From the NCBI GenBank assembly GCA_008632985.1, contig QPGO01000122.1:1-64000 (forward strand): a DNA stretch of 64,000 nt, read 5' to 3'. Both the position numbers and the translations under genes were made by a program. Position 1 is the stretch's first letter, and the number at the start of each line of letters is the position of its first letter. Origin of the DNA: Psammoneis japonica (lineage: Eukaryota). Below the pieces are notes generated by a model. The model did not search any database. It saw only the letters and a program-made list of their open reading frames with translations, and had not been told where the DNA came from. Positions 19,331-60,369 of this stretch are shown here, in pieces.

Positions 19331-19399
19331 ACATTGGTCAAGGCCATGGCCAATGTCCTGCAATGCTGCAAACAAGGAACCAGCAGAGGTGCCATGAGT

Positions 19400-22750: not shown

Positions 22751-23271
22751 TTTGGCAAAAAAAGGGTGAGATGTCCTCCTGAAGAGCGAAGCTTGAGCTG
22801 ACTCTTTATGATTGTCTCCTGTCACAGTGCACAATGCAGGAAAATTGTGCTGCAGAAGGCGCAAAATTGTTGCAATGATTTGAAAAGATGGCACTGGCCT
22901 CATCTCCACCACAGCTTGCCAAAGCGGAACACAAGGTTGGGAGCACAGCACGGCGTGACTTTGGCATCTTGAAGAGACGTGGTCCGCCAAGAAAGAGTGG
23001 AGTTGTGCTGGGAGGTCTGGTGTGAAGGCCGCCACGTGAATTCCAGTGGAGCAGTGGGAGCATTGTGTGAAGCATCGTGCTTGTACCGGTGTGTGTTTCC
23101 GGGTTTCAGTGTCCTCCGAAGCAATTTTTTGACGTGTTGTGTTGAACACTGCAAGCATCCATCCGGTGCACAGACATGCTGCTGCCTGCTGCATCACGTT
23201 CTCGTTAACTCTTTCGCATATCTTTGCATACACAGAACACACAAGTCCTACAACTCGTTCATCGCCACAAT

Positions 23272-27785: not shown

Positions 27786-28058
27786 CTTGAGCTTGTTTGC
27801 AGCCTCTGCTCAGCGTTGGTGGTGCCTCGAACAGTCATCAGCTCCTTGCTCCATGAGACGCTCTCTGCCCCGAAACGATCGGAGCTGGAAGCCAATTGGT
27901 TCATCCTTTGGGCAACCACACAATTTCTTCAACTCATGATCTTTGCCAAAAAGGAACGACATTCTGTCATCCACCACTCCGACTGCCGAGCACTCTTCCA
28001 CCATCGCCGCACCTCTTGGGACATCAGGCATTGTTGAGCTGCCTTCACCCTTTGAATT

Positions 28059-30500: not shown

Positions 30501-31061
30501 GAGAACAGTGTGCTTGCAAAGGTGCAAGAAGAGCGCAGTTGTCGCATGGTGTCGAGAAGGGCGTCGTTGCGTCCCTTGCGGCATCGTGGTGGGTGGTGGC
30601 GAAATGATGCGGCTGCAAGAGTTGTTTTTCAAACAACACGGCCTGCCGCGTGGAAGCTTCTACGAGAAATTTGTGTGGAATTGCACTGACCTCCAGAAAA
30701 AGAAATCGTCACACCTCCCACAGCCCCACCATGCTCGCTCCATCAAGGATGGATCGTCTGGATGAGGTGTTTTTTCAGTTGGCTCGTGATTTTGCAATTT
30801 CCCCGTGCTTCGCCCGTGTCATTTTGCCATGCCTCTGAGCACCCCCAAACACATGTGACTGTGTCCAGCCTCCATCAGGGCTGTTGGATCTACATGTGAA
30901 CTGCACATTTCAACCTTCAAACGCCAATTGTCGGATTCGGCGCAGTTGCCACATGCGACAAACCGCTGTTTTTCGCCAAAATCGCACTGCTCATGGGAGA
31001 TGAGCCACAACTTTCCAGGAAAAGCCGACATTTGGCGTTTGACTGGCTGTGGACACATCCA

Positions 31062-31475
31062 CCGTGCACTTGAGCATTTGTGATGAGTTGAAATTTTGTA
31101 CGCACAGTTGCCCCACATGCGACACATCGATGGAAAGCTGAGAGTCTGCTCATTCCGTGGGGGGGGGGGAATGGGGGGGTGAGCTCTGGCAGTTTTTTTT
31201 GGAAGATGAGGCATGAGTTTTGGGTGTGATCATTGAAGTTTGTGCAATTGTTAAAATGATCAATGTTGTGCCTCATTTCTTTGATTGGCGAGCAACCGAA
31301 ATTGTGGAACACTTTTGACATGCCAAACACGACCTGATTTGGAGCCGTTGGTGTTTCAATGCATTCCACAGACATGTGGGCGTGCATTAAAATAGGTCTG
31401 GGGGTCAAAAACTCCAAATCGCGACCCCCAAGTGTTCCACAGTTTCAAAGTCATCGAAAACATCCAAAAACACGG
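31062..31475. mobile_element. ~414-bp pogo/Tc1-type MITE, copy A (TA-depleted)
   Basis: ca|CCGTG...CACGG|tg termini; homologous over its full length to 47190-47605. Confidence 0.85.
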
Positions 31476-32085
31476 TGCAGTCGTCAAGCCAAAGATCGCG
31501 CATGGTCACGACCATCGCCAACACATTCCATGATGTCTTTCGAAGGGACAAAGTTCGACCTGTCGCTGAAAATATTTTGTTGGCGAGCGCGCGCATCCAG
31601 CACGAGAAATCCGGGTTTTTTTTCCAAAAAAATGCGAGCTCGCGCGCAAACAAACCTCATCTCGACGATCCATCCTTGCCCAAGGGGGACCGCCGACCTG
31701 TTTTTTCCGCGTTTGTCCTAAAATTGGCAATGTGTTTGAATGCGTTTGTTTACAATCATCAATTTTAAATACAAGAATTGTTCGATCGCCCACGAAAACG
31801 AGAACATCAGGCACCGCGATCAAAGCACGACGATGACGGCAATTGCGCCATCTCTCAAAATTGGCCCAGTGGCACGAGGGACGAAAGCATGCAAATCAAT
31901 CTGCGCCACATGACGACAACAAAACCAGTGAGTGTCCCTCGTGACACTTTGCAACTCACCGCTCGTCGCGAACATCATCATTGTCGCTCGTGCTTTTGTC
32001 GTGTTATTTTCTGTCGCGACCCGTCAAAAACACGTAAAACCCCGGAAAAGACGTGCGAAAAAAATAAGCCGACGGCCCGCCTTAA

Positions 32086-33690: not shown

Positions 33691-36600
33691 TCATTGCAAT
33701 GAAGGCCGAATTCGTCGCCCGTCTGAAATGCTTTGCAAGTCAAAGCCTTCTTTGGCAAGCGTCTGGATCATCACACTCTCCACATGGCGAGCTTCTGTCT
33801 TGCCTCCGGAAACAGCCATGGCAATGGCATGGGCGTTCTTCCACGCACCACCCTTTGACCGATGTTGTTTGAGACGATTTCGTAATGAATCCGTTTCCCC
33901 TACGTAATATCGAGCACCGCCGTCCATCAACAGCAAAACGTACAGGCAAGACTGACCCTCCAACGAAGCCGGCGGTGTCCAACCTGGTTTTATAACGTGA
34001 GCCTTCTCCTCGACAACACCTTCTGCGATTCGAATCACTTTTGAAAATCGTTCCATTTCACCATTGAGCGCTCTTGCGCCTACGCCATTCTTTCTTACCA
34101 TTGGTGTTCGCGCGACTCTGAGGCTGTCGTCCATTATGTCTGGCGCGTCGGAGTCGTCACTACCAAGATTATCCATTTGAGAAGCAAAGTCTTTCGCACG
34201 ATCTAGAATCTCGTTGGGAAGCCCAAATCGCTTTGCAGTCACTAGTGACATGCTGTCCGTGCAGATGCCATCTTCCAACCGATAGGTCCACACATAGTCT
34301 CCATTCTCATCATTTTGCTCGTGAATAGCCATTCGTTTATTGAAAATGCGATCCTGCGTTCCCAGCAGCGGAAGACCAAAGACATCATGCAAATGAGTGG
34401 CAAATATTCCACTCATTCCCTTGTTCGCCATGGCTTCCAATACTGCACCGGCTATGGACGTCCCATCCTTTGGGGAAGTGCCCCGCCCAAGCTCGTCGAC
34501 AAAGACTAGAGATTTCGAACCACAAGACCGAAATAGAGCAGCAATGTCTTCCATTTCGGCTCCAAAGGCGCTCTTTTGTTCTGTAGGGACATCGGCAGAA
34601 GCTCCGCGCACAAATATGCTATCAAACCGTGCCACGGTCGAGCCGGGTCCCACTGGCGCACACAGACCGCAATTCGTCAACAAGGCTGCGGCTGCCGTAG
34701 CTCTCATCAAGGTACTCTTGCCACTCATGTTAGGAGCTGTCAACAAAAACAAACCTTTGAACTCAAAAGAGTTCTTGACAGCTTGCGAACGATCCATCCA
34801 GTACGGCCATAAATCATTGAAGTGACCAACCGCGCTGTTTTCGTTGTCGCCTTCTACCGATCTTTCGTAGTTCTCGGCCATGTTCCATCCCAAATTGTTT
34901 GCTTTGGCTGCGTGGTGGGAGGCGGTAGAAAGAATAAGGTTGGTGTGCGCTGCTTGGACCACAGAAGGCAAATGACCCGACTCGCAAAGCGTCTGACTAA
35001 GCTCGGTCAACACCAAAGTAACCTGCTTACAGGCATCATCACAGGCTGACACATAATCAGACAACGCATCCTGAACTCGTTTGGTCGTGTAGCGATTCCG
35101 CAAAAGTTTGCCGTTTCGATCTCTTGGATGAATGTATGCCGACTCCCCGTCGTTATCGGAATGAGCTGCCCACGACGGCGTTTCTCGAAGTGCAAACAAG
35201 TTGTTAAAGACATCTTGTACAATTGGATTCTTGATTTCTGTCATCCGTTGTTTAACATGCTTTTTGAGTTGTATAGTATCCTTGACATTCGCTGCGGTGG
35301 CTTTGTCTAATCCCCAAAAGTCAATCGCCACAGCCTGTGCCAGCTTCAATGCCGATTCTTTAACCTTGTCGTAGGCGCCTTGAGCTGCTTCTACCCTGAC
35401 CCGACCTCTCCAGGTGGCTTCGTTCCGCTCAAAATAGGCCGGCGGGATCAGTTGATCAAACTCGGAAATTTTATCATGCATGCCATCATCTTCATACTGA
35501 ACAAACGACATGGATCCAGCATGGTGCAAGGGACTTACAACATTTTCAATAATGGCCGTTGCTTCTTGACAACGTCTCTTGACGGATTCAGCATCCGCCT
35601 TGAGCCCGCTTTCATACTCTAAAAGCACCATTAGTGGGTCTACCAGTGTCTCTATTCCCTGGGATTGATCAAATAGCGCTGCATCCAAAACTTCCATTGT
35701 TGAATCCATGGCGCCAAGGAGTTCTCCATACACGTTCGCACTTGCCTGTCCTGCACGAAGGAGAGCCAGTATTTTTCCTACAGGAGGGACAGACAGAGGC
35801 GGCAACGCAGCTCCTTGATCTTTAAGATAGACCACAAGAGAGGACATGGCATCCGCGACTTTTGGAGGTGGTGGAGACAAGAGCCATCGACGGAGAAATC
35901 GACGGGTTGCCGCGGGTGCCGACGACTCGGGAACTAGCGACGACACCAGCGAAGGAATGGTCGTATCGGACATGAGACCCAGCTGAGTCGCAGTCTCAAC
36001 GTGAAGAGGATGGGTGTGAGTTTGCCCACTGCTTTCGTCGTCATTGCTAGATGAAGCGCAGGATACTAATGTGAAATCATCAACAGTCACAAGTTGTCCA
36101 GCAGTGCCATCAACGTCATCCTGCTGTTCGGTCAACTTTATCAAGGCAGATACAATAGTGTTTTGCGCGCATTCCAAGTTTGTAACTCCTGGTGCCAGGC
36201 CCTGCATGACCGTAGGAGGTAATATCTTGGTTCTAACCTTTGATCCGGGCCCATCGCTTGCCGAATCAAACCGCGACGGTATAAATGGCAAGGCAAGACC
36301 TGAAGTAAAGGCGGCATCTGCGTATTCACTGGGAGATGGAACGTAAATCAAAGGGTCTGCTGGTGGATATGCGGCAAGCCGACAGGCGACGGCCTCTGCT
36401 GTCAATCGTTCTGATACTCGTACCGATCGCTCCTCCATCGACACTTCTACAATAGTGTATCCACTTGCAGCTGAAATGACTCCAACATGTGGTCGCGACG
36501 CGGGAGCCGTGACAAGAGTATCGGCATTTCCCAATAGCACCAAGTCATAGAGATATGTTGGCGAGGCTGAGGAAACAATTTGTGCCAGCATTCTGTTTTT

Positions 36601-37833
36601 GAGACGCGCCTTGGCGCCTCCCGTCGCCCCGGAACCAGCGGAAGAGTCGGTATCGGCGGCTTCTTCATAGACAGCAACGCGAAAGCCTTGATTCGTCAGG
36701 CAGTCCAACGTGGCCTGAATATTACGAATCGGGCAGCCAGCTCTTGCCTTGCCAGCCATGGCATTCAGACCACAATGCTCCACAAGCATAATGGCATCAA
36801 GTCCAAAGCTCTCGTAAAATTCACCAACACGCATCAAAATCACGCAATCCGAGTATCGTTGTTTTTGTTCTCTCACATAATGTAGCAATGATCCCTTTTT
36901 TCCTGCTGCAGTTGATGAAAGGGGCTCAGCAATTGCCTTACCCCGCAGGGGATCATGTGGTACAGCTAGTGAATCGTATCCCATTGGACAAGTTCTGGAG
37001 TTCAATTGAGCAACCAAGGTTCGAGCAGACGGCTTTGTCACGCATCGTAGAGGCTCTCTCCAGTAGTCATCGATGAGGCATTTATCACCAAATAAACTGT
37101 CCACCATGTTATCATAGGGGGTTGCCGCTTCCCTTGTTCGTGGCGATATGTCAAGCAATGGTGCGTCTTCTTCTTGAACAATATCATCCGAGTCCGGTAT
37201 TGTTGAAAAGGCTGCAACAGCTTGTCGTTGTTGTGGAGACGACAACATTTTCCCCATTATAGTAGTTTCAGGGTTGCTTCCAACTGGCTGCAGCCGACGA
37301 AGCTGAGATGACACTTCTCGATGCTGCAAGACCAACTTTGCAAGAGCTTGTTGCTCGGCATGCTCGACATCAAGCGCAGCCTTGAGTAATACGCTTCGAC
37401 TTGTGCTCTGAATAGTACCAAAGATTGCTTGAGAGACTTGCTTTGGACTGTTGACATTGATGGGCTGGCCACGATTCACTGTCGTGATTTCTCGTTCAAT
37501 CTGAAGTAGCCTCTCTTGCAATTGCTCAGCGTCATTATCAGAAGATTCTGCAGAGAGTTTTGCAGAAGAAAACCTGTGGCTGTTATTGCGACCTCCGGGG
37601 GAAAATAAGGAGTGCCTCTTGTGAATAGCACACTGTCTCGCTGGTGGATAGAAAGGATACGCAAAAGCTCCAATGTGACGACGACCGCGGTATGCTTTAC
37701 TCGACGTCAAACACCGGTGCATAATATCTCTTCGAGCGTAAACAAAAAGGTTCGACTTTTCTGAAACGTCAAAGCACCACAAGAACCAAAGATAAAAGAT
37801 AACCCTATGGATAATCATAGAGTGGAAAGGCAT
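33691..37833 (-). CDS. MSH1: Plant-type organellar MutS homolog 1 (MutS + C-terminal GIY-YIG endonuclease)
   Basis: RVGEFYESFGLDAIMLVEHCGLN..KARAGCP (domain I FxE), TAPNMSGKST (Walker A), DVPTEQKSAF, VFVDELGRGTS, FATHLH and C-terminal LYVL..YYVGETD..RLKQH. N-terminal targeting-like extension. Confidence 0.93.
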   Translation of the reverse strand: MPFHSMIIHRVIFYLWFLWCFDVSEKSNLFVYARRDIMHRCLTSSKAYRGRRHIGAFAYPFYPPARQCAIHKRHSLFSPGGRNNSHRFSSAKLSAESSDNDAEQLQERLLQIEREITTVNRGQPINVNSPKQVSQAIFGTIQSTSRSVLLKAALDVEHAEQQALAKLVLQHREVSSQLRRLQPVGSNPETTIMGKMLSSPQQRQAVAAFSTIPDSDDIVQEEDAPLLDISPRTREAATPYDNMVDSLFGDKCLIDDYWREPLRCVTKPSARTLVAQLNSRTCPMGYDSLAVPHDPLRGKAIAEPLSSTAAGKKGSLLHYVREQKQRYSDCVILMRVGEFYESFGLDAIMLVEHCGLNAMAGKARAGCPIRNIQATLDCLTNQGFRVAVYEEAADTDSSAGSGATGGAKARLKNRMLAQIVSSASPTYLYDLVLLGNADTLVTAPASRPHVGVISAASGYTIVEVSMEERSVRVSERLTAEAVACRLAAYPPADPLIYVPSPSEYADAAFTSGLALPFIPSRFDSASDGPGSKVRTKILPPTVMQGLAPGVTNLECAQNTIVSALIKLTEQQDDVDGTAGQLVTVDDFTLVSCASSSNDDESSGQTHTHPLHVETATQLGLMSDTTIPSLVSSLVPESSAPAATRRFLRRWLLSPPPPKVADAMSSLVVYLKDQGAALPPLSVPPVGKILALLRAGQASANVYGELLGAMDSTMEVLDAALFDQSQGIETLVDPLMVLLEYESGLKADAESVKRRCQEATAIIENVVSPLHHAGSMSFVQYEDDGMHDKISEFDQLIPPAYFERNEATWRGRVRVEAAQGAYDKVKESALKLAQAVAIDFWGLDKATAANVKDTIQLKKHVKQRMTEIKNPIVQDVFNNLFALRETPSWAAHSDNDGESAYIHPRDRNGKLLRNRYTTKRVQDALSDYVSACDDACKQVTLVLTELSQTLCESGHLPSVVQAAHTNLILSTASHHAAKANNLGWNMAENYERSVEGDNENSAVGHFNDLWPYWMDRSQAVKNSFEFKGLFLLTAPNMSGKSTLMRATAAAALLTNCGLCAPVGPGSTVARFDSIFVRGASADVPTEQKSAFGAEMEDIAALFRSCGSKSLVFVDELGRGTSPKDGTSIAGAVLEAMANKGMSGIFATHLHDVFGLPLLGTQDRIFNKRMAIHEQNDENGDYVWTYRLEDGICTDSMSLVTAKRFGLPNEILDRAKDFASQMDNLGSDDSDAPDIMDDSLRVARTPMVRKNGVGARALNGEMERFSKVIRIAEGVVEEKAHVIKPGWTPPASLEGQSCLYVLLLMDGGARYYVGETDSLRNRLKQHRSKGGAWKNAHAIAMAVSGGKTEARHVESVMIQTLAKEGFDLQSISDGRRIRPSLQ

Positions 37834-38317
37834 ACAGACTGACTCTCTTGCTCTACCGTAGCACTACGCTATTATATTGTCTCAAAGATTTGCCGTCTCC
37901 TTGCTTACTTCTCGTCGTCATTTTGCAGGCTAATTTTGAAGAGATTGCAAGATGTGTTTGCCGGATTTCGCAAAAAATGAGCGACAGCCAGACGGAGAAA
38001 GATCGTAGTCGCGCTCGCGCGCTGGCGGGTGCGCGCTCGCTCGGAGCTTCCTCAGTTCGCACTCTTCGTACCCAAGTTTAGATGGAGACGAACCGTGCGA
38101 AGCAAGACCCCTCATCTGGCTAGACCATCGTCATGTGCCTCTCCCAGAGGAGGGTGCCTCTGGGCCAAGATGACCGGTTTCTGTGACCGGTCAAACTTGT
38201 CGGCATCCTGTTTCCCCTCACTTTTCCATCTTTGTTGAGACAGGAACCCTGATCAACGTGACTGGACCACACCAAAGCATTGGAAAAGCTGTTTTTTGCT
38301 CCCTCTCTTGCTCGAAC

Positions 38318-40796
38318 ATGTCTGACTTCTTCGCCTCCGGCGTCGACAACGAGGCCTTCGTCAACATTGCCCGCACTCTCGAGTCGGATGTCATCTCTCT
38401 GTTCTCGTCGCGTTCTCCTCCGTCGCCCGCTGCTCGGGCCCCACCCTCTGGGGTGGGTCATCAGGGGGGTGCTGAGGGCTTGAACCCCTCCCTTGGGGGG
38501 TTGAACCTTGGAATGACCGACACTGGGCACTCGACATTGAGCTCGCGGAGTTGGGGGAGGTCAACACCCCCAACCCGGATTCGGCTTTTGATGCCCTGCC
38601 ATCGAGAGCCGATGGAGCACAGGCCCACGCACCTCGCGTGGACTTTTTTGCTCCGGGAGATGAGGGAGCAACTCGAGGGGCGTTTACGTCGAAGGAGGAA
38701 GGTGCGTCTCCTTCGTCTGATGCTCCTCGTTTTCGTGTCATCTGGATGGAGGGCACCGATGCCACCCGCTGCCTTGGTGTGATTGGGGGTGGTGCAACAT
38801 TTTGTTTCAAGAAAGCCTCGGAGTGCAAAGTGAAACACAAGGGATCCAAGAAACAAGTCCCTCTGAACGGCATGGTGTTGATCCTTAAGACGCCGGACAC
38901 GGCTTTCTGCCAACCCACTCTTGACGGCTCGTTTGTCTCTGCTGATGTGTTGGTCAAGTGGGAGTCAGCGTCGGACACCTTGGCGGGGTGGCGTCAGAAG
39001 TTCCCAGCTCTGGGAAACAGCGAGTCGCGCTTCCCAATGGAGGACCAGTTTGGCGAGTCTCTGAAGCAGCACAAGGAGGCTGCGGCCTGCAAAACCCCAG
39101 CTAAAACCAAGGATCCTGGGAGCGATTTGTTTCCAGGGGCACAGTTTGGGCAGTTCTTGCCTTGCCAATGGGCGATCACCACCACCCCATCCCAATTCCT
39201 TGCAGCAAACAAGAGTCCTGCAGCCCTGGCTCATGTGGTGCAGTCGGTCGAGCGAAACTTGTCAGAGACAGGACACGTCCTGGTCGACTTGGGGAACAAA
39301 GCCTGCTCTCGGTTCAAAGACTCGGACTTGGCACTTGATGTGCTGAGTCGGAAGTTGGAACAGCTCAATGCCACTCTTGGCACCCCTCCGGCGGAGCTCG
39401 ACCAGCGAGTGGAAGCTCCGACCATCTGGGGGACGCTCGCCAACCTGTCGACACTCAGTCCTGGAGTGCATCAACCTCGGGATTTTTCTGCTGAGTTGGC
39501 CCGATTGGAAAGCAGCGCTCGGGCCGGGTCCAACAGATTGGCGTCAAGTGTCACTGCAGCTCTGCAGAGGGTGCAGGCCCAGCTCTCTGGCCTTGCTCCT
39601 AAACGTGACCTGGACTCTCTGAGGGCGGGGACCCTGAGAGTCTGCAACCAACCAGTGGCGAAAGTACAGAGGTTGGAGAACGCCGCTGCGTTGGGTGGAG
39701 GAGTTGCCAGTTTGGGCAGTGGGGCGAGCGGAGCAGGTGTCGCGCCTCTTGGGACACTCGATCGTCAAATCCGAGACCTCAGCCAAGCTGTCAATGAGCT
39801 GAAGTCAAAATCGGAATCGTCAGCCATCAAATTCTCAGGTGCAGGCGTTTCTTCATTCGCAGAATGCGAAGCCTGGATGGTCCAGCATTTTTCCTCCAGA
39901 GCGTGTGGGTGTCTCACGGACGCTAACTTGTTGTTGGACCGAATTGTGGGCACCGAGCCGGCCGCGCTGCATCACTTCCTTGCTGGATTGTCCAAACGGA
40001 TGGACTTGAAGATCAGTGTGGAAGAGGATGCACGGACACTCGCCTGTTTCCAATGCAGCATGCCGAGGATTCTCGACTCGGGGTCAGCGAAAGGAGCTCA
40101 GTCACCTGGGCTGCACCCCTCATTCCTAGACAAGGTGTCGACCCACGACCATTGGACGACGGGATCCACTGGTGCAAAACACTTTGTCATGGAAAAGATC
40201 GTTACGATCGAACGCAATGCCTTAAATGACATTTCCCAGAGGGTCCCGAGCGGTTCCTTTGAGAGCCAGGTTGTTCGAGACGCTCTGTCTAAGTCCATGG
40301 CGTTCGCATGGGCCCTGACACAGTTCGCGGATGAGACTTGCGAAAATCTTGTGCAGTTGAGCAAGTTTTCTCAGAAACAGGCTTGGTCTTTAACGTCAAA
40401 ACTGGCACACCGCATCTTCAATGACCTCAACCAGGTTCGGTCGGGGGTTTTCACTTCGATCACAGGGACTGATCCCGATGCGGTGTGCAGTCAAATTCTT
40501 TGGGCGGTGTTCCGGTCCCAGGACGCAATGGCCGAACACACGGCACACAACTTCAAGGACCACCCCTCGATGGCGTCTGAGCATGTCAAGTTCCTCGCGA
40601 CCAATTCGGGATTTGAAGTGGTGACAGCTTTGCAGGCCACGGTTGTGACCCTCACTTGACAAGGCCAAGAATGCGGGCACGGAAGCGAAGTCAGCGCAGG
40701 CGCGAGCCGATGCGGCACACCAAGAGGTGAACAAGTTAAAAACGGAGCTGAAAGAGGTGAACCGTCGTCTGAAGGCTCTAGAGACAAAGAAATGAA
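38318..40796 (+). pseudogene. Ngaro gag-like ORF1 (frameshifts near 38550 and 40655)
   Basis: 702-aa open stretch with CLGVIG..FC...C..KH N-terminal motif, coiled coils and FKDHPSMASEHVKFL. It contains no Tyr. Confidence 0.75.
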
Positions 40797-40801
40797 GCCA
40801 G

Positions 40802-43800
40802 GTGGGGGGCGGACCACAGGTGAATGAAAATGTGGGGCACGTTGTTCGCGGTCGCAAATTCTTTGCCTTTCGCGGGACATGCTTGGTCATCTGTGGCGGT
40901 CCCCCCATTTGGCTCTTGGCCCTCCGCTGTTCTGAATGGCCTCGAGTTGTCCTTTGCTTGATTGATTCCGACCCGTCTCCCTTGGAGTTGGTTCTCATTG
41001 CCCTTTTTGAGTCGCAAGAGGGAGCTTCCCTTCAGCGCATCCCGTTCTCCGGGGTGTCTCATGCATTGGAGAACTCTGATTTGGCACTGGTTTCGGGGCC
41101 TCCAGGTGTTTTGGAGAGAGTTTCTCGTGTGGGGTGCACGTGCCCGATGCACATGGTCCCGGTTGGGGGGGTGTCGAGATGGGCTTTGAAGGGGCTCCAG
41201 CATCTCCCTCATTCGGCCATTTCTCATTCGGGGGTGGGAGGCGTGACTTCCTTCCGCACAACGTTCTTCTGCATCGGTGGCGCGTTGCCAGAACTTGATC
41301 ACGGGCTGCGGCGGACCATTGGTCACATCATTGATTGCAAATGCGAGGGGCAGGTTAGCCCCCAGGAGTCTGGGGAAAGGGTGTGCCGTGAGTGCGATTT
41401 GTCACACCCACACCATTTGGGGCGGAAGGTTCTTTGCCAGTCCCACCGGTCACCCACGGGGTGGATGGTCCGCACTCTCACTGGAGATGAACTCCTCGCC
41501 GGGTGGGATTTTCCCATTGGGTTTCGGACTCAAGCTGTTCAGGACCAGTTGGGGGGTGAATGCCTCACACAGCTGGTTCCATTGAATCTCCTCTCTACAG
41601 TGACGGACGGTTTTATTTTACAAGGCTCCAGCCCCCGGTTGCCGCCGGAGGTCCAGCCATCCCCGGCTGCACGGTCTCCTGAGCTTCCGGCATCCGGTCC
41701 TCGGGTTACATGGCTGCCGCGACTAGGTCGGTGCTTGTCGCACGACTGGATCGACTTGTCTCTGATTGCCGCCAAGGCTGCAAAAGGGGATTTGGTCGCC
41801 CCCCCTTGTCGCCTCTGGGACAAGCGCATCACTCTCTTGTTTCCCATGTTCGAACTGGTGCTCCCGGCCCTGCGCGGGTTGGCCCACCGGTGGTGGCGGC
41901 GACGCTTGACTCGGTCGCCATTGGGTTTCCTGCATCGGCGTTGTGGCCCAGGATGGATGATCCATCTTGCACAACTTCGTCGACGGCTTGGGGACTCTGT
42001 TGCAAGTCTTCAGGGGGGTTTGTGCTGGGACCCACCACTCCCCTCCCTTTTGTTGGACGCCAACTTGGGAGCAGAGGTCTTGATTCAAGCTCTGGGGAGT
42101 TCATGGTGGAGTTGGGACCGGGGGTCCTCGCTTTTCTTCTGGCGCTGGCCCTCTCCTGAGCAGCGGGATGGGGCCCGTGACGGCATTCCGATCTTTGTCC
42201 AGACCACCCTCCCTTGGAATCGGCGGCGGCAACGCATCCGCGGCACGTCCAATGAGATCCAGCGGATGGCGGCAAAACTTCAGAAGGTCCGGGATCATGG
42301 TTGCATTGAGGCGGGGCCAGTGTCCAGCCTCACCGACTGTTTTTGGGTCCCGAAGGCGGTGTCTCTGCTCCCGAGGAGCGATGGAAGAATGGAAGAGGTC
42401 GTGGAAGATGTTCGCATGGTCTACAATGGGACCTCGTCTAAACGACGCTCTGTGGGCCCCTTCATTTTTCCTCCCGACTGCATCCTCAGTCCTCAGCTGC
42501 ATGACTCCAACCACCTTCTCTGTTGACTTGGACTTGGGTGACATGTTTCTCAACTTCTTCATGGACCCCCGCACTCGGCCTTGCGCCGGGATCGACCTGA
42601 CCCCGCTTCGCGACCACTTGCCGAAACCTTTGGCGGGTCAGGCTCCTGTGGGGCTGGAGAGGTGGAACCGCCCATTCATGGGTGTGAAACCCAGTCCTCA
42701 CCTGGCCGTGCGCGCTTGTCATTGGGCTGATGAGGTGGCCCGGGGGGACCCGGGATGGCCGGGTAACCCGATGGGCTTTGACAAGATCCCATTCAATCTG
42801 CCGGGCGATCCCGATTACGATGTGAAGAAGCCGCTGGTGATCAAGTGGAACTCTTGTCAAGAGGTCATCGCAGGCGATGTCAAGACTTTCGTCGAGGGGC
42901 ATGGGATCAAGCGAAGAAGAGGCTTGGCAAGTGGGCCATCAAATGGCTTCGAGACTCCAGTGTCTTGGTCTCCAAAACGCGGCCCGGAAAGTGCGGCCAC
43001 CATCCCAGCACGAAACTGGGGCCTGGGCCGGAGCGATCTTTCGGGCGACAGAAGGAGACGTTGCCCAATCCCTGTCTCAAGCGAAGTGGGACAAGAGCAA
43101 GACAATGATTGCGGACCTGTTGAGCTTCTACGACGGATTGCCTGCCTCCTCCCTCCCACTGTTCAATTTTAAGGATTTGGAAAGGAAACGAGGATGCCCA
43201 GTGCACGCGGCCATGACCCACCCTTTTGTCACTCCGTTCCTTAAAGGAGTTCACTTGACCTTGGATGGGTGGTGCCCTAACCGCAAGCCCGATGGATGGG
43301 CCATGTCAAACAAGGAATGTGCAGTGTGGATTCAGCACGAAGCGGACAAGCTTGGCATGGAACCGCACGAGGTTAGGGAGGCCCTCCAGGACGCGAGGCA
43401 CCCCGAGTCCGTTCGCGCGGTGCCGCGTCTCTTGTCGGATTTGAAAGCTCTACGGCGGATCTTGGAACCTGAGAAACCAACCACCAGGGTAATCAGGTCC
43501 TCTAAGGTCATGGTGGTTTTGCATGGGTTTGCCGACACATCTGGAAAGGGACTTGGATCCTCAGTGGAAATGAAGGACAGCGCGACAGTGTTCAGGATTG
43601 GTGCATGGGGCAATGATGACCAGTCAAACTCGTCAAACTGGAAGGAACTAACCAACACAGTGGACTCCATCCAGGAACTGGCCGAGGCTGGGGAACTCGA
43701 CCGTGCTGTGTTGCATTTCTTCACGGACAATTCTGTTTCGGAAATCGCCGTCTACAAGGGAACCTCTTCCAACCCTAAACTCCTGGAACAAGCAGCACGG

Positions 43801-44600
43801 CTCAGAGTCCTGGAGGCCAAGCATGGATTTACATTCCACTTGATTCATGTTTCGGGGAGTCGCATGATGGCCCAGGGCATGGACGGAGTTTCTCGAGGGG
43901 TCCTCTCGGAAGGCGTTATGAATGGAGCCAAAATGCTCTCGTTTGTCCCTCTGCACCTGCCGGCAACTGAGCGAGCACCACCACTCCTGGGGTGGATTCA
44001 GTCTTGGGCCGGATCTCCCACAGCCGATCTACTCTCCCTGCTTGATTGGCATCAGAAGGGGCATGACACATCTGGGTGGCGTCACCCACCCCACGAAGCC
44101 GTTGAAATGCCAACCTTTCGCTCTGGCACCTGGGTCTGGGCTCCGCCCCCGGCTGCAGCAAGGAATGCACTTGAAGAACTGTGGATTGCTCGACTCAAGC
44201 GACAGACTTCTTTCCACATCTTCATGTGTCCCCGCCTGATGACTCCTGAGTGGCAAAAACAACTGCACAAGGCAGCCGACTTGGTGTTTTGAGTTCCGGC
44301 TGGGGCCGGGCCTTTCTGGCCCGAGGAGATGTTCGAACCTTTGCTCGTGGGCCTTGTTTTTCCGTTCATCTTACACAGTCCATGGCAACTCCGAGGCACC
44401 CCAAAAATGCACTCAATGGACCGGGTGCTGCGGAGAGTGTGGGAGGATGCTGAAGTGGATGAGAGGCATCTTCTGCACAAATTTTGTTCACAGTGTCGGG
44501 GGCTGGCCCGCGTGCCAAAAAGCGTGGTGTCCCGGGTGCCATGCTTCAAGCAAAAACGTGACATTCCACCTGGGGGGGATCCTCCAGCCCGACCAATGAA
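40802..44600 (+). pseudogene. Ngaro RT/RNase H ORF, frameshifted
   Basis: FWVPKA...DVRMVYNGT, LNDALWAPSFFLPT, DLDLGDMFLNF, FMGVKPSP, GAWAG, HGFADTSGKG, SSNWKEL, FTDN, HVSGSRMMAQGMDGVSRG and WAPPPAAA. Confidence 0.9.
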
Positions 44601-45948
44601 ACGATGGCGAGGAGCTTCCCGGTGAGGATGCCACTCGGATCGAGGACAACACCTGGTTCCGGAAACCACAGGACAAGGACAAGTTCACACGCGCGCGAAC
44701 CGGGGACCATTTGATGGTGGCTTTTGAGTGCAGAACGGGTGCATCTTCCACAAGCTGCACTGGAGAGACCCCTTCCCCACCTCACCACGTGACGAGGTGG
44801 CTTTGGCTTGTGTCAGGCGGGTGAACCTGGATGCCTTCTGGAGTGGAGAGACCTCCACGGCAGAGAACAATGTGTCCAAAGTCGCCCGGAGTTCAGCTCT
44901 CTCAGAGCGTTTGGGGCTCCAAGGACCTTGCTTGGAGCCAGGACCTCTTCTGTCTTTTGATCATTGTGGACATGAGGTTGCGATGCAGATGGTCTTGGCT
45001 TCGATGTCCCCGGGTCGCCACTCTGACTTGTGCGCTCAATTCGACACTGTTGGGAAGCTGCGGACTGCGCACTTGAACCAGGTGAGGTCTTCGGCTTCTG
45101 CAAACAGGCGAGCCTTGGCTCTTGCGGACCTCGAGGGCAAACAACATCTCCGCATTTGCGAGGACCCGTGCGCTTCCCTCTGGTTCCAAAGGTTTGTGAC
45201 AGGTTGCAAAAGATGCATGGGTCAAGATTGGAGACCAGACAGGGCCATCTCGGCGCAGATCATGCAACACCTTTTGCCCAGGATTGAAGAAAAGTTCAAC
45301 CGGGCCACCGCAGCTGGGGATCGCCTCAGGTGCTTGACTGGTGGCCTGTGCTTCGCGGCTAGTTTCATGTTGTCCCTCCGAGGACCCGAAGGCTTGCTCA
45401 TGGATTTGGGTGCCATGCAAGAACACCTGCCTCTCCATCAATCCCACGTGGTGATCCCGCTTCTCGGTCAGGTCAAGGGAGAACACGGGGAGCGCCAACA
45501 CCTGCTTCCGAGTGTAAATGTCACGGGATCAGGTGTTCGCCTCCGGCAGTGGATCCAGGCAGTTGTGACCTTACAAGCATCAAGAGGACGCACTCGAGGA
45601 CCAGCCATGTCGGACGATGGTGGAAAGGTCTTGTCCACTCATGACCCAAATGTGCTTCTTTACCTCGCCCTGTCAGAGCTTTTTGATGACCACCCGCCCC
45701 TCTTTGGGGCAGACATCACCTCCCATTCGGACATTGAGGACAAGTGCGATGTGAGCAGGTCTTTCCGTCGCGGGTCGGATTCAAGAGCCATCGCTCAAAA
45801 TGTGTCGGAGGACGATGTTGATGTGGTGAATCGGTGGAAAAAGAAGGATCGAGCTGGAGGGACCAGGCCGTCTCACAAGATGAGGCAACACTGCGCGGAC
45901 ATCTCTCTCCTCCTCCCTTGCTTCTTAAGACACACTCAGGAAATGTGA
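44600..45948 (+). pseudogene. Tyrosine recombinase of the Ngaro element; presumed catalytic Tyr reads as Cys
   Basis: SLRGPEG (R), LLGQVKGE (K), SRSFRRGS (xxxR), VNRW and MRQHC (expected MRQHY). Confidence 0.88.
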
Positions 45949-47189
45949 GCCAGCTCGGGCACGCCCTCAGGGTGCATTTGGCACGAGCTGTTCTCTGCGG
46001 GTGGCCACTGCCTGGGAGTTCTCATCGGGGGGGGGGGGGGGGGATTTGTGCTCACCTTTGCCGACAAGACCGCGGGAGTCTATCGCCAAAGTCTAGATCG
46101 GTTTCTTTCGGTTTCACATCCTCGACGACGCCCAACTGCGAAGGCAAAGAAATGGCGTCTGGCGTTCTCTTTGATTCCAAGTTCGAGAATCCCTTGGTTC
46201 GGGGTGTCGACATCGCGCAATGCTGAAGGTGCCCCCCACTGGGTTCGTTCGGAAGCGCCCGGAGCATGGTCCGATGAACCAATCCTTGAGCCCTCGAGTT
46301 TTGCTCGAGACCCTGCGGAGGGTGTGGGTTTGCCCAACCCCCCCAGTGCAGAGTAGAGTGTTGCCGAAAACTCTGCTCTATGAGACTTCCAAGTGCTCTA
46401 ATGCCGAGCCACTTCTCAGTGGTTCTTGGCAAGGCAGTCCTTGGCCTGGCCCCAGATGAGATCGGCACCGCACACTGTCAAATCCTCTTCGTGCCCAAGT
46501 TCAGATGGAGACGAACTGTGCAAAGCAAGACCCCTCATCTGGCCAGACCATCGTCACATGCCTCTCCCAGAGGAGGGCACCTCTGGGCCAAGATGACCGG
46601 TTTCTGTGACCGGTCAAACTTGTCGGCATCCCATTTCCCCTCACTTTTCCATCTTTGTTGAGACAGGAACCCTGGTCAACGTGACTGGACCATGCCAAAG
46701 CATTGGAAAAGCCCTTTTTTGCTGCCCACCCACCACTCCCTGGATTTGTGCTCACCTTTGCCGACAAGACCACGGGAGTCTGTCGCCAAAGTCTAGATCG
46801 GTTTCTTTCGGTTTTACATCCTCGACGACGCCCAACTGCGAAGGCAAAGAAATGGCGTCTGGCGTTCTCTTCGATTCCGAGTTCGAGAATCCCTCAGTTC
46901 GGGGTGCCGACATCGCGCAATGCCGAAGGTGCCCCCCACTGGGTTCGTGCGGAAGCGCCCGGAGTGTGGCCCGATGAACCAATCCTCGAGCCTTCGAGTT
47001 TCACTCGAGACCCTGTGGAGGGCATGGGTTTGCCCCCAACCCCCCCAGTGCGGAGTAGAGTGTTGCCGAAAACTCACTCTATGAGACTTCCAAGCACTCT
47101 AATGCCGAGTTGCTTCTCAGTGGTTCTTGGCAAGGCAGTCCTTGGCCCAGTCCTAGATGAGATCGGCATCGCACACTGTCGAATCCGCA

Positions 47190-47605
47190 CCGTGCACTTG
47201 AGCATTTATGATGAGTTGAAATTTTGTACGCACAGTTACCCCACATGCGACACATCGATGGAAAGCTGAGAGTCTGCTCATTCCGTGGGGGGGGGAATGG
47301 GGGGGCACCGGTAAGCTCTGGCGGTTTTTTCGGAAGATGAGGTATGAGTTTTGGGTGTGATCATTGAAATATATATAATTATTAAAATAATTAATGTTGT
47401 GCCTCATTTCTTTGATTGGCGAGCAACCGAAATTGTGGAACACTTTTGACATGCTAAACACGACCTGATTTGGACCGTTGGTATTTTAATGCATTCTACA
47501 GACATGTGGGCGTGCATTAAAATAGGTCTGGGGGTCAAAAACTCCAAATCGCGACCCCCAAGTGTTCCACAGTTTCAAAGTCATCGAAAATATCCAAAAA
47601 CACGG
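47190..47605. mobile_element. pogo/Tc1-type MITE, copy B (TA partly retained)
   Basis: ca|CCGTG...CACGG|ta; homologous to 31062-31475. Confidence 0.85.
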
Positions 47606-47733
47606 TACGACGTCAGGCCATTTACGACTGAAAGCTGAAAGCGCCGACGTGTCAACAGCGGCGTCTCCACATCTCACATCGCATCAAGTTGCTGTTGTCG
47701 GATGAAAGAGACAGAGGAGAACAAGAGTTGAAA

Positions 47734-51742: not shown

Positions 51743-53491
51743 CCCTTCAACCACCAGGGGAGCAAATTTCCACGGTGGAGATTTGCTCTATTTAACGATT
51801 TGTGACGTGTCATGCACCTTTATAATAATATAATGAACATAGTATTAAAATGTCATATCGCGTAGAATCTACGTAAAGTACGCCACGTGCATTTACTTAT
51901 TGGGAGCAAATCTCCACCGGTGGAGATTTGCTCCAAGGGTGTGGCATTATTGCTCTATTTGCGATAGTAATTCATGATAACCTTCATTGTTGAAGGTTGA
52001 GATTCAGTTCCTCTCTATTCATAGATGAAGCTTGCAAAAAACCCGGTGTTAAAAGTCGACATTGAACTTTCTAAATTACAAAAAGGGTTCCCCCAGATTT
52101 TCGGCGAAATGGACTATGGAGATTTGAAAAAATGGTCGCACTCGGCCTGTCCTTCCTTGCGTTCACAAAACTTGTGTAGGATTCTACGTACGTAATATTA
52201 CGTGGGGCAATACTGAAATGGCAGTTGCACCAATCCGGCCTCATTCAAATTTGCGTGAGGCCAACGCAAACGGCACTTTCACGATGATGCGGCGGCGGCG
52301 TCTTCAGTACGTTCCCGTAGCCATACCACAGTATATGCTTCTAGATGTGACAATGTGTTGGAAAGTTTGAAAGAGATCTGTCTCATTGGTGGCGTCTCTG
52401 ACGGTGTTGTTTTCAACATGAATTTGTGGACTGGACTGTGCATTGTGGCAGGGCTGAATGTGGCAGCACTGGCGGCGGCAGGAGCCTTTTACTGCTTTTG
52501 CACTGGGGGTGACTGGAGCCTGTGTGCTGCTGTCCTTTTTATCTGGTGGCGGTTGGCACCCCTGCACGATGCTGGTGCTGGTGGTGGTTGGAGCTTTTTT
52601 GCTGCCAGCCAGTGGTTGCAGTGGGAGCCTGCACATCGCTGCCACTGTGGCACTGGTGGCGGTGGGATCCTGTGTGCCACTGGCACTGGAGGCGGTTGGA
52701 GCCTTTTGCTGCTAGAACTGGCGGCAGCAGCAGCCTGTGTGCTGCTGCTGCAGCACTGGTGGCACCAGCATTCGAGGCGGTTGGATTCTTTTTATCTGGT
52801 GTTGATGGTGCCCCTGTGTGCTGCTGGCAGTGGTGGTGATTGGAGGTGTTTTGCTGCTGGCAGTGGTGGCAGTGGGAGCCTGTGTGCTGCTGGCAGTGGT
52901 GGCAGTGGGAGCCTGTGTACAACTGCTGCCACAGCAGTGGTGACGGTGGGCGCCTGCGTGCTGGCGGCACTGGAGGCGGTTGGAGCCTTTTGCTGCGGGT
53001 GCTGGTGGCAGTGGGAGCCTGTGTGCTGCTGGCACTGGCAGTGGTTGGAGCCCATGTAACACACCAACCATCGGCGGCGGGATCTTGAGATGACCGGTGA
53101 CGACTCGTGGAGAGATTGCTTGGGGGTTTCAATGCAATCACATGTTTAAAAACCAGTGCTTTAGATTGTCAACGTAGCTCTCAATGATGATGATCTCTTG
53201 TCTCTACATTCTTTTGATGATGTGGTGCAACAGTGTCTTCTTTTTAGCATCGCGGCCGATGATTCACCACACTAGCTACTTGCACCACGTCTGATTTTCA
53301 TCTCAGATGCATGGCGACAGACGGACAGTGCGACCAATTTTTCCGAATCTCCATGGTCCATGCGCGTTCCAAAACAAAATCGCGCGAATGAAACATTGTC
53401 CACATCTGAAATTACTTCATTTGCCACATTTGTGACATGAGGGAGCAAATCTCCACCCGTGGAGATTTGCTCAAGTCCGGTGGTTGAAGGG
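51743..53491. mobile_element. Non-autonomous piggyBac-like element: CCCT..AGGG ends, CCAA 4-bp TSD, subterminal 30-bp palindromes
   Basis: ccaa|CCCTTCAACCACC...GAGCAAATTTCCACGGTGGAGATTTGCTC and GAGCAAATCTCCACCCGTGGAGATTTGCTC...GGTGGTTGAAGGG|ccaa. A perfect palindrome lies at 51904-51933. Confidence 0.8.
52440..53055. repeat. Degenerate ~33-bp minisatellite (GCTGGCAGTGGTGGCAGTGGGAGCCTGTGTGCT)
   Basis: Many imperfect head-to-tail units inside the piggyBac-like element. Confidence 0.85.
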
Positions 53492-53499
53492 CCAAGGTG

Positions 53500-54460
53500 T
53501 CCATGGGGTTGGTGGTTGTTGTGGTGGGGAAACAGGTGGTGGAGGAGGGCGTGCGTAGCGCGCTGGGAGAGGGAGAGAAAAAGGGTTGGCCGCGGGTGCA
53601 GACAGATGGTCGTGAGGAGGAGTTGGTGATGGTGGGATGGTGGAGGAGGAAAGCTTGACATGCAGAGAGATGGTTGGAGAGAGCAAAGCCAAAATTGAGA
53701 CTGAGGATTTGGGAAGCCCAGAGCAGGGGTGTTGCTGCATGACAGGAGGAGCCGAAGTGATCGGGTGAAAGTTGTTTCCAGGCCGCGTTGGATTGGGCAA
53801 GGAGGTTGGAAGGAGCCAAAAGGGAGTTGGTGCAGGCAGAAAAGGATGCTTGCAAGTTGGATGAAGAGGATGGGCTGGACCAGGGCGGTTTGGGAGGGAG
53901 GGGCGGGACGGAGGAAGAGGCAGTGGTGGAAGCGCCAAAGAAAAAGACATGGAAGTGATGTCCAATGCCTCCAAGGTGGTCGAAGGTAAAAGGGAGGAGG
54001 AAGAGGCCTGCTTGGTTGATGGCGTCAATGATGTCAGAGCCATGAGCAGAGGATGTAGAACGGCCGAGGAGCTTGTCCCGAGTGCTGCTGAGGTGAGCCT
54101 TGTTGAGCGGGTTTTCAGGGACAGGCAAACCAGGTGCAGGAGGCGGGGGAGCGGGCAGTGCGGTGACATCAATTGCTGGGAATTGGTGGGTGGATGGGGC
54201 GTTTGGTGGTGTGGAGCCGGGAGCAAGTTGGATGCCGATGTCGGCGGGGCGTTTTGGAGGGTGGTTGGGTGGGAGTCCGGCAGGGTTGAGGTGGACTTGT
54301 TGGCGAGACCGGCAGAGACTGCACATGGGGCCAAGGGTTTCGATGACAGTGTAGATGGTGTCACGGATGTGGTTGGACAGAGGGCCTTTGTGCATTTTGG
54401 AGCAGGCAAAGGCGTGATCGCCGTGCGGGTCGGGGCGGGTGTGGCCGCACCCGCTTGTTG
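53500..54460 (-). mobile_element. 3' fragment of an RLE-type (CRE/R2-like) non-LTR retrotransposon
   Basis: CG..DPHGDHAFAC...SNHIRD...RPADI...AIDVT...LLPFTFDHLGGIG (zinc knuckle plus PD-(D/E)xK-type endonuclease). Confidence 0.78.
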
Positions 54461-56314
54461 CGCGTAAATCACGCTCACTGCACTGCGCGCTTTGCTGCCG
54501 CACCTGCCTGCCTGCTTGCCTGCCTTCTTGCTCATCCCGGCCATCTGTCCGCACTGCCGGCTCCGCCTTTTTTCCGCGGCCGCCCCTGCAGCTCGTCGCG
54601 TGATGACTCACTCAACCACCATCCGTTTCTGTTTGTCACACCAACACAAACTCTTTCACAAAGTGTCACTTGCTGGGTGAACAACAGTGTGCAAGAACTC
54701 GTTGCTTTGTCCAAGGAGGAGTGCTGTCCACAGGTGAAAAAAAAAACACACAAGCAGAGGAAGCTGGGCGACACAAACAAAACAGGGATGATGTGAGCAG
54801 CAAGGTTCGCCCACCGCGGTGGTTTTGAGTCAAATCACATTCAGCAAGATGACCAGATCACTTGCAGAAATTGATCAGCTGCTCTCAAAATGACCAGCAA
54901 GATTTGCCAAACAGCACCCCCCCACCCACCCCCCGGCTCGCGCCTCCTCCACTTCAGCTTGGCTCTGCGTGCATTCTAGCCACACAACTGTGCTTGGGGA
55001 CAGATTCAGAAAAAACAACATTTGATCTTTTGTGCCATCAACAGCATGTCACAGATGCCAGATCAAATGCCAATGATGGCACAGCAGCAATGACCTGAGT
55101 TGGCAATGTTGCATTGACTCCACACCCATCACTCTGCCCATCTGCCCGCTGCATGCTTGATCCCCTGCCTTGGTGCCACTGCCAACACTGAGCATGCATG
55201 ATGCACTTCAATGACAATCAAAAGGATGCACTCCAGGAGCCAAGCCCCCCAGCTGGTGCCTGCTCAATGGAGCAGTTCATTGACAGTTTGACTGCAGTGC
55301 CCTGCACAGCAGGCATCTCATTCTCACAATGCCCTCTTGTGCATGTTGGCAGCACCTTTTCATGAGAACAAGACTGCAGTGTGAAGCACTCAAAGCAACT
55401 TGTGCCAGAGAGGCCAGCTCCATTGTGTTGGCTGGCTCAGCTTGTGTGCTGCAGGCTGCAGGCACTGTGGCCCAATGATTGGCCAGTTTGACAACTGACA
55501 GAAGTTCTGCTGCTCAACTGTTTGTTCCGTCATCTCTGGCAACTGCCCATGTTGGAACTTCAATCAGTTGATGACTTCATCAAGCACACAAAGTTTTTGT
55601 CCAACATTGCCAACCTGCTCATTTTTTCCATTCAAGCCCTTGAGCCTGCTGCAACATGATGAGTGTGCTCATTTTCTTCTTCTTCTCTGCCAAATGTCCA
55701 TTTTCCATCCATGCCATTTGCAAATCATGAGCTGCTTGCCTTGCTGAGTGCACCTCCTTCTCTTTGGGGGGCTCGCTTGTCCTCAGCACAACATCATGAG
55801 TGGGGCCACTGGGTTGGCTGACTTCCAACATGAAAGTCAGCCTTGGCACACATCTGCTGCCTTTCAATGCTGGGACTCTCTTGGCTCAAGATGTGGCTGC
55901 ACATCGTTGCACACTTGTCTTTGCCAGTGGGGGCAAGTTTCAGAAAATGTTTTCTGTGTGCCAGAGCACGGCAAAAACAGGTTGCGAGATGGCGAGTGTG
56001 CTGCAGTGTTCAAAAGAAGTTGAGAAGGCACAACAGCAGGCAACAGAGAGCATCAAAATAGCTCACCCAAGTAACAATTCATTTCCGCTGCATGTGCTCT
56101 TCCAGCGGATCGGTCCCACAAAGCAACCAAATCAGAAGCATGGAGATTCCACATTCCTCTTCGCAAGCACGTTGGCCCCTTGCGACCGCACCGACCCAGC
56201 CACAGACCTCCCAAGCCGGGAGTGGCACCGACGACCACATGCTGAATGCGACCTACCAGCCACCATGGACCTTTGACTTGTCACACTCAGACTTGTGCCT
56301 TTGTAGTAGCGACC

Positions 56315-59691: not shown

Positions 59692-60249
59692 CTCAGCACA
59701 TTTAAAAATCAGCACTTCAAAAGAAAACATCAGCACCTTTTTTTTAAATTTCCAGCACTGTGAAAACTTTTTGCATGCCGACAAATTCTGAGGCACCGCC
59801 TCTGCTCAGCACCCAACATGACAACACCACAACAATGGCACGGGTGCCGTTCGTTGAACACAGTGGGGGTGATCCAGTGTTGAAATTGCTTTGTGAGATT
59901 GTCACACATGTTGTTTGTGACAAACTTGCGAAGAGACTTGGGCGCTGGAGCACCTCCATTGGTTCAATGGGGAGTGGCGTTTGTGTGCCGTTGTCATGGT
60001 GTCATTTGCACAGTGAGCACAAATGCTCGTGGCTGTTTTTTCCACAAATGATTCATTGTTCAGCAAAGACATGGCCCATTCCAGTTGCTTTCTGCAGCAC
60101 ACATGTGAAAAACAAGGGCATTCAAAGGTGCTCGGTTTTTAAAAAAGGCGCTGGTTTTTTGCATCGTTTTTAAAAGGTGTTGAAAATGAATGAAGGTGCT
60201 GACTTTTTGGGCTCTTTACAAAAGGTGCCTGATTTTTAAAGGTGCTGAG
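59692..60249. mobile_element. Stowaway/Tc1-type MITE with CTCAGCAC TIRs
   Basis: tg|CTCAGCACATTTAAAAATCAG ... CTGATTTTTAAAGGTGCTGAG|ca, with repeated CAGCAC/GTGCTG subterminal motifs. Confidence 0.75.
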
Positions 60250-60369
60250 CACAGCATTGTGTCTTGGAGAGGTGTCTGGCACAGACACACTTGGCACGTT
60301 CCAAATGCCCTTGACCAGGTTGTGCCGACTCCCCCCGTTTGTTTCTCCTGTCATGTCCCAAGCTTGCTT

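Follow-up and report, generated by a model that had tools for sequence, protein, structure and literature searches.

RIP (repeat-induced point mutation) of ascomycetes is a transition-only, dinucleotide-centred and sharply limited hypermutation of repeats that kills the element, changing C:G to T:A at CpA/TpG and so creating TpA. Editing of the APOBEC3/ADAR type, which also inactivates retroelements, acts on one strand, in one direction and with a dinucleotide bias; APOBEC3 edits retroviral cDNA. Hypermutation from TpA to TpG or CpA has been measured in mutation-accumulation lines of Bigelowiella natans, where it targets integrated giant-virus and virophage DNA that mutates in culture; de novo changes there arise about 1000-fold faster than the background, although not in every line (Mettrop et al., bioRxiv 10.64898/2026.01.13.699255). 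A full-text literature search returned no description of TpA hypermutation for diatoms, and this one 2026 preprint as carrying the same signature as the locus described here, a retrotransposon of the diatom Psammoneis japonica lying at 38062-47185 of a 64,000-nucleotide stretch (contig QPGO01000122.1, positions 1 to 64,000; hereafter the window). The element belongs to a multi-copy family of Ngaro-type retrotransposons (DIRS order, with a tyrosine recombinase) and is itself dead, and we consider it probable that it underwent TpA-directed A:T>G:C hypermutation on both strands together with a slower decay of CpG, its repeat copies changing independently of one another.

Ngaro elements are defined by split direct repeats in the order A1...B1-A2-B2, the recombinase gene being followed by the internal ones (PMC4157794). 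A repeat finder and pairwise alignments recovered the order A1-interior-B1-A2-B2 in the window, likewise with the internal pair downstream of the recombinase gene, and the split repeats that a first-pass annotation had recognized at 38062-47185 are therefore real. All four lie on the plus strand. A1 (38062-38303) and A2 (46485-46726) are identical at 225 of 242 columns (93%), and the second pair, aligned over 46042-46494 and 46742-47195, at 416 of 455 (about 453 bases at 91%). B1 itself (46042-46484) lies 96 bases past the end of the recombinase open reading frame (ORF) and abuts A2 at 46484/46485 (between ...AAATC and CTCTTCG...), and B2 extends over 46742-47185. The observed/expected ratio (o/e) of TA is 0.60 in the left flank, 0.22 in A1 (3 TpA left), 0.12 in the interior (43 TpA versus 350 expected), 0.24 in B1 (5 TpA), 0 in A2 (no TpA), 0.29 in B2 (6 TpA) and again 0.62 in the right flank. 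Throughout the window TA-poor blocks (o/e 0.03-0.28; 1-22000, 26001-31491, 38062-47187, 53001-56000 and 60001-62000) alternate with genes, those at 32-38 kb and 48-52 kb having values of 0.50-0.74. The family is not TA-poor by nature, since 36 metagenome loci of at least 7 kb that encode relatives have a TA o/e of 0.50-0.71.

The element shares with RIP a transition-only, dinucleotide-centred, sharply bounded and element-killing change, but TpA is erased (A:T>G:C) rather than created, and one of the two copies of a 433-base duplicate was left untouched. With APOBEC3/ADAR-type editing it shares a deaminase-type, dinucleotide-biased, element-limited and inactivating change; unlike such editing, it involves both strands equally and has also affected a flank copy outside the element. 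The closest likeness is to Bigelowiella as described in the preprint, namely A:T>G:C at TpA giving TpG or CpA according to strand, confinement to foreign or repeat DNA (here a TA o/e of 0.12-0.29 inside versus 0.60 and 0.62 in the flanks) and long-term TpA depletion with an excess of CpA and TpG. In contrast to Bigelowiella, a chlorarachniophyte, a diatom (stramenopile) is the host here, a retrotransposon and not viral DNA has been hit, the process is seen as a historical footprint in the sequence alone, and CpG decay is superimposed on it.

The differences between the repeat copies were counted over 681 securely homologous columns of A1/A2 and B1/B2, which contain 47 transitions and 2 transversions as well as 3 gap columns. 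TA is present in both copies at 4 sites and faces TG or CA at 6 (TA being kept only in A1 at three, only in A2 at none, only in B1 at one and only in B2 at two); TG faces CA at 11 sites, referred to below as doublets; CG is present in both copies at 34 sites and faces TG or CA at 10; and 11 other substituted columns (9 transitions and 2 transversions) belong to no class. The first-pass annotation had based its case on TA lost from one copy or the other, and all six string pairs that it quoted are present, namely GTACCC/GTGCCC, TTTAG/TTCAG, GGCTAGAC/GGCCAGAC, GTCTATCG/GTCTGTCG, TTTCACAT/TTTTACAT and CCCAGATG/CCTAGATG. Taken alone, however, the six TA sites carry no statistical weight: when 47 transitions and 2 transversions were thrown at random on copy 1 in 5000 simulations, 7.2 such sites were expected and 3774 simulations reached 6. 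Single CG losses are also at chance level (10 observed, 11.0 expected). The non-random parts of the repeat differences are the 47:2 excess of transitions and the doublets, of which 0.45 were expected against the 11 observed, with a simulation maximum of 4 and no simulation reaching 11. One dinucleotide, TA or CG, must thus have been hypermutable in both copies. It had been rightly cautioned that TG/CA pairs could derive from either, and none was polarised directly, but to set them aside is to discard the sites that hold the signal. About a third of the repeat differences have no relation to TA (10 CpG sites and 11 others), and if the doublets derive from TA, TA-related changes account for 28 of the 49 substituted columns. 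Of the 11 doublets, 8 have their TG in the upstream copy, a bias that is not significant by a binomial estimate, and the doublets show no outer-versus-inner pattern.

The direction of change is, as the first-pass annotation had assumed, from TA to TG or CA and not the reverse, and this is indicated by three independent lines: conserved tyrosines, a duplicated flank and five TA sites in other copies of the element (see below). Tyrosine (Tyr) is the residue in 16 family-conserved columns, 13 of which are Cys or His here (7 TGY and 6 CAY codons), two Tyr and one Phe. In the recombinase, for which a conserved column was one with Tyr in at least 70% of 60 relatives, 8 of 8 are Cys (TGC, three) or His (CAY, five); in pol, compared with 30 relatives, the 8 conserved columns comprise 5 Cys/His, 2 Tyr and 1 Phe. 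Other conserved columns are kept at 383 of 460 positions. Over the element ORFs only 5 of 2311 residues are Tyr, with none among the 727 of ORF1, versus 2.6-2.9% in relatives. The 433-base duplicate begins exactly at the 3' end of the element and has an unmutated copy in the right flank (47188-47620, plus strand; 21 TpA, o/e 0.62) and a second copy on the margin of a TA-depleted block (31060-31491, plus strand; 4 TpA, o/e 0.13). The two copies are 92.5% identical, and 16 of their 22 substitutions are TA in 47188-47620 versus TG (9) or CA (7) in 31060-31491, with no reverse changes and four TA common to both, so that the second copy lost 16 of 20 TpA.

Polarised TpA losses are divided evenly between the two strand outcomes, 17 TG versus 17 CA, and both strands are therefore affected. 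In the history that we favour, the two A and the two B copies would have become separate DNA and then changed independently through three processes. The fast process, TpA to TpG or CpA (A:T>G:C on either strand), would stop at the element borders and have removed about three quarters of some 30 TpA per A+B unit; the slower one would be CpG>TpG/CpA decay, as expected for methylated transposon DNA; and the third component would be a background of about 1% per copy. Loss of the same TpA on opposite strands in the two copies would leave a visible TG/CA doublet. Rough estimates from the census and a count model (described below) put the loss per repeat copy at about 73-80% of TpA, about 12% of CpG and about 1% of other sites, and the TpA rate at roughly 100-fold per site above the element background. 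The fast process probably acted on the integrated, double-stranded copy and was probably enzymatic, adenine deamination at TpA being the simplest candidate chemistry, as proposed for Bigelowiella.

A different timing would have TpA edited on RNA, cDNA or a circle before integration, with CpG and background changes added later, and the element would then have been dead on arrival. The first-pass annotation had regarded the divergence of A1 from A2 as pointing to a chromosomal, post-integration process rather than RNA editing or reverse transcriptase (RT) error. Where this can be checked, the changes are indeed private to one repeat, but the argument is not watertight alone, because, on our reading of the split-repeat layout described in PMC4157794 and PMC7192593, the two A and the two B copies would all be present in a full-length Ngaro intermediate, and editing before integration could therefore differ between them. 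The borders are no obstacle either, TA depletion beginning and stopping exactly at the element ends, which suits such editing equally well. Against it stands the 17:17 strand split, since editing of a single RNA or cDNA strand would give one direction, and at 11 or more sites the strand affected differs between the two copies of a repeat, which speaks against a single long event on one strand of the whole element. Moreover, the depleted flank copy at 31060-31491 has no likeness to the element in its upstream sequence, a block of about 31 kb (1-31491) is likewise depleted, and the Bigelowiella process was observed, according to the preprint, on integrated DNA. Strand symmetry, the mutated flank copy, the 31-kb block and the Bigelowiella experiment seem to us better arguments for a chromosomal process than the divergence of the repeats, and we regard editing before integration as unlikely.

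Alternatively, the doublets could have arisen by CpG decay in a methylated transposon, the same hot CpG being hit in both copies, and the TA singles would then be random transitions, in line with their chance-level number. A count model of TA origin, with per-context TA retention estimated on depleted DNA elsewhere in the window and the repeats left out, predicts from about 30 ancestral TpA 3.2 shared sites, 8.4 singles and 9.2 doublets, versus 4, 6 and 11 observed, whereas a uniform CpG rate set by 34 shared sites and 10 single losses predicts 0.3 doublets. The summed log-likelihood is -11.3 for TA origin and -24.4 for CG origin at uniform rate, 13 units worse, in a comparison that favours TA partly by construction as the CG model has no rate heterogeneity. 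A TA model with uniform rate also fits poorly (10.9 singles predicted, 6 observed). Ancestral composition offers a further criterion. If the doublets came from TA, the ancestral repeats would have had about 30 TpA (o/e about 0.8) and 44 CpG (0.86); in 23 relatives the 700 bases that follow the recombinase gene have a TA of 0.57-0.94 and a CG of 0.64-1.17, ranges that include both values and favour this origin. If they came from CG, the ancestral TA would have been about 0.3 and the CG about 1.2, beyond these ranges or at their limits. When the flanking context of the doublets was tested with tetranucleotide priors taken from normal DNA of the window, the likelihood ratio was 0.1-0.2, which is hardly informative, leans at most slightly towards CpG and gives TA no support. 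An interior doublet at 44223-44224 (CA here, TG in three other contigs), situated at a Phe/Val codon boundary, is better explained by a CG ancestor, Val being present in 18 of 30 relatives. CpG losses are also frequent in the comparison with other copies described next. Decay of CpG would nevertheless leave the TA o/e of 0.12 in the element and the replacement of Tyr by Cys and His without explanation. Based on the count model, most doublets very probably derive from TA, and CpG decay as their general source appears quite improbable.

Other copies of the element were sought in a public sequencing run (X1), in which 0.72 of sampled words of the element are present. Contigs placed at 80% likeness number 604 (154 with a likeness of at least 99%, 107 with 95-99%, 150 with 90-95% and 193 with less than 90%), and the family is accordingly multi-copy. 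From two further runs, X2 and X3, no contigs were placed on the element, a result that does not count as evidence for its absence there. The comparison covers the best-supported 40 of 2047 variant rows: 24 are CG elsewhere versus TG or CA here, 5 are TA elsewhere versus CA or TG here (one of them in A2, at 46544), and 11 are other changes. The CpG losses private to the window copy, together with the 10 CG sites of the repeats, are those expected from decay of 5-methylcytosine, here a slower and minor component (about 12% of CpG versus about 75% of TpA per repeat copy). Five of the 40 variants fall on repeat differences, and 5 of the 38 differences could hence be polarised. CpG was lost by B1 alone at 46224, 46287 and 46350; at 46544 A2 reads C, where A1 and 254 of 295 depth units of the other contigs read T (a TpA loss in A2); and at 46675 A2 alone has G for A, at GAT, against 4317 of 4345 depth units in the others. 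At all five the partner repeat agrees with the other copies (83-99% of depth), so the change is private to one repeat and derived. The polarisation that the first-pass annotation had proposed thus covers a minority of the sites. Its view that TA loss underlies the repeat differences is borne out in part, as three of the five changes are CpG losses (B1), one is a TpA loss (A2) and one is A>G at GAT (A2).

Were the differences between A1 and A2 and between B1 and B2 inherited from a master copy whose repeats are not homogenised in each cycle, younger copies would share them. Split repeats are stated to be identical at insertion in one paper (PMC4157794), and the replication model of split-repeat elements has no experimental settlement yet according to PMC7192593, which leaves room for such inheritance. 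The other copies match the partner repeat at every one of the five checkable sites, and none of the shared differences that the first-pass annotation had named as refuting its reading was seen there; in addition, the split repeats of five metagenome relatives are 96.3-100% alike over 241-1531 bases. Inheritance is accordingly very improbable. A RIP-like creation of TA in one copy of each pair by C>T at CpA/TpG, for which it can be said that pairwise TA-versus-CA/TG differences alone give no direction, is refuted by the direction tests and has a negligible probability, TA being depleted (o/e 0.12-0.29) and not enriched, conserved Tyr codons being destroyed and not created, and the flank pair running 16:0 towards TA loss in the depleted block.

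Several points weigh against the reading that we favour, in addition to the chance-level number of TA singles, the shape of the borders and the CpG-leaning tests given above. Just one of the five polarised differences is a TpA loss, and no doublet is among them. At 43170 and 45661, two of the 11 other changes, the window has TA and four to five other contigs have CA. The run used for comparison is perhaps the source sample of the window itself, and its contigs are not independent copies. Lastly, identity of the repeats at insertion rests on one paper and on metagenome contigs that assemblers may have made uniform.

A broader proposition, on which our confidence is evenly divided, is that a chromatin- or repeat-targeted mutator operates in diatoms, working on both strands and converting TpA to TpG or CpA near saturation in new retroelements, limited by their borders. 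As a rhizarian alga carries the same signature, it would be a genome defence that is either common to stramenopiles, alveolates and rhizarians (the SAR supergroup) or repeatedly evolved. Such a mutator would remove about three quarters of TpA, with nearly all ATA/TAT, at about 100 times background, and would be a mirror image of fungal RIP. If the reading favoured above holds, a second and distant algal lineage has TpA-directed A:T>G:C hypermutation against mobile DNA, here a retrotransposon. This element contributes doublets close to saturation, three rates that can be compared inside a single insertion and a border that is sharp on both sides, the split repeats of a single insertion serving as an internal clock (TpA about 75%, CpG about 12%, background about 1% per copy). 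Rewritten tyrosines would explain why transposon ORFs in this genome escape Pfam, and erased TAA and TAG would explain three open-looking frames; insertion dates taken from repeat divergence would be grossly in error as long as TpA and CpG sites are counted. Stop codons on the plus strand of the element are 144 TGA, 21 TAA and 13 TAG, compared with 211, 118 and 97 in 11.4 kb of normal flank, and the erasure of TAA and TAG leaves many long open frames on both strands of the element.

Survival of TpA varies with the neighbouring bases. In 41.6 kb of depleted DNA no ATAT, one ATAC and one GTAT are left; the most numerous surviving contexts are TTAA (51), CTAC (40) and TTAC (33), and survival relative to gene DNA is best in TTAG, TTAA and TTAC. 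The TpA remaining in A and B are mostly in such refractory contexts. No analysis of context dependence was found in the main text of the Bigelowiella preprint (10.64898/2026.01.13.699255). The better 3' neighbour was not supported as a predictor of which A is mutated (among 17 losses scored by hand, 5 fit, 4 did not and the rest were ties). Loss of TpA seems to run ahead of loss of CpG: blocks 16001-22000 and 60001-62000 have a CG o/e of 0.08-0.20 and a TA o/e of 0.03-0.14, and the Ngaro copy has a CG o/e of 0.72.

The interior of the element is coding on the plus strand only, and gag-like, putative RT/RNase H and recombinase ORFs, as in Ngaro (DIRS order), are represented. ORF1, in the gag-like position (38476-40659), is open over its 727 codons and belongs to no Pfam family. 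The pol gene is spread over three frames through two frameshifts, near 42437 and 42895. Its first piece (41021-42436, frame 1 of 3) corresponds to the N-terminal part up to RT and was delimited by tblastn of full-length relatives; the second (42438-42896, second frame), also placed by tblastn of relatives, is the predicted RT core up to the YVDD position; and the third (42895-44553), with 3679 relatives, contains the predicted RT thumb and RNase H and the C-terminal part. Full-length pol relatives have about 1200-1350 residues, and their consensus, judged by eye, shows RT and RNase H motifs (...YVDD..., ...GDASG.GFGS..., ...FTDNS...). Among 8 full-length relatives, 4 match Pfam RVT_1, each of them under the cutoff of 29.6 bits (the best with E 2.4e-4 and 21.3 bits); the window ORFs have no such match, and a PDB profile search with pol gave 0 matches; the nearest named ESM Atlas clusters are RVT_1/RT_RNaseH (score 0.93). 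Pfam has no methyltransferase match, Dam included, in any of the 8 pol relatives (E<=0.1) or in the window ORFs, but about 220 residues after RNase H are without assignment, and some neighbouring Atlas clusters carry PF05869 (Dam) in 12-19% of their members. The lack of a methyltransferase domain sets Ngaro apart from DIRS/PAT, and in the window element it is judged from Pfam silence alone.

The recombinase ORF (44734-45945, in an open frame of 406 codons at 44728-45948) has 351 relatives with identity of up to 53%, including Fragilaria crotonensis and many metagenome proteins, and the Tyr of its C-terminal QHY motif is Cys here (codon TGC). None of the 351 relatives has a Pfam domain; a Pfam search of 30 of them gave noise only, and a PDB sequence-profile search with the family gave one chance-level match (E 0.22). 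The structure of an intact relative, modelled with AlphaFold from 30 sequences (mean predicted local distance difference test score, pLDDT, 70.7), has as its best PDB matches XerH, Cre, integrases, XerD and lambda Int (E 4e-4 and upward), with 8 matches at E<=0.001, template modelling (TM) scores of 0.34-0.54 and nothing but tyrosine recombinases near the top. On this predicted structure, the family of this last ORF folds as a tyrosine recombinase. For the ORFs of the element itself Pfam gave nothing at E<=0.001 and noise alone at E<=5. Unlike known Ngaro elements, the family is nearly invisible to Pfam (RVT_1 below cutoff, no integrase match), and this copy is dead, with two frameshifts and rewritten tyrosines. 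No shorter protein fragments of the same family were found above 61% identity, and the A repeat searched as an exact pattern in metagenome contigs gave 0 matches.

Some further features concern the ends of the element and the duplicated flank. GCAC occurs at both junctions (38059-38062 and 47187-47190) once the element ends are set one base inward, and the first 15 bases of the right flank (47186-47200) resemble the first 15 of A, with a CGTGC core in common; this GCAC/CGTGC likeness may represent a recombinase crossover or target core. A metagenome relative (L070) has a 1568-base B+A unit both before and after the coding part (1-2396 and 10325-12025) with 99.9-100% identity, an arrangement that resembles elements in head-to-tail tandem or an assembly that ran round a circle. 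The TA-depleted block and the duplicate end at the same position, 31491, and a weak likeness to the end of B2 (...ATCC) is seen over about 25 bases upstream of 31060, so that the same target may have received a different recombinase element.

Elsewhere in the window, an ORF for a FAD-dependent oxidoreductase (DAO, E 1.5e-14) lies at 23209-24768 in the large TA-poor block, with an intermediate TA o/e of 0.25-0.42, and is possibly a gene, or a copy of one, on which the hypermutated domain has encroached. Diverged tandem-like repeats, 65-78% alike between units, occupy 52460-53060 in a GC-rich stretch with strong GC skew. The left neighbour of the element, at 33691-37863 on the minus strand, is an unbroken ORF of 1390 codons that encodes domains I and V of MutS, with a GIY-YIG match at the C-terminus and a weak DNA_pol_A match at the N-terminus. 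Its relatives reach 62% identity, the same domain set is widespread in diatoms, and the names noted among them are all diatoms, bar one row labelled Alexandrium.

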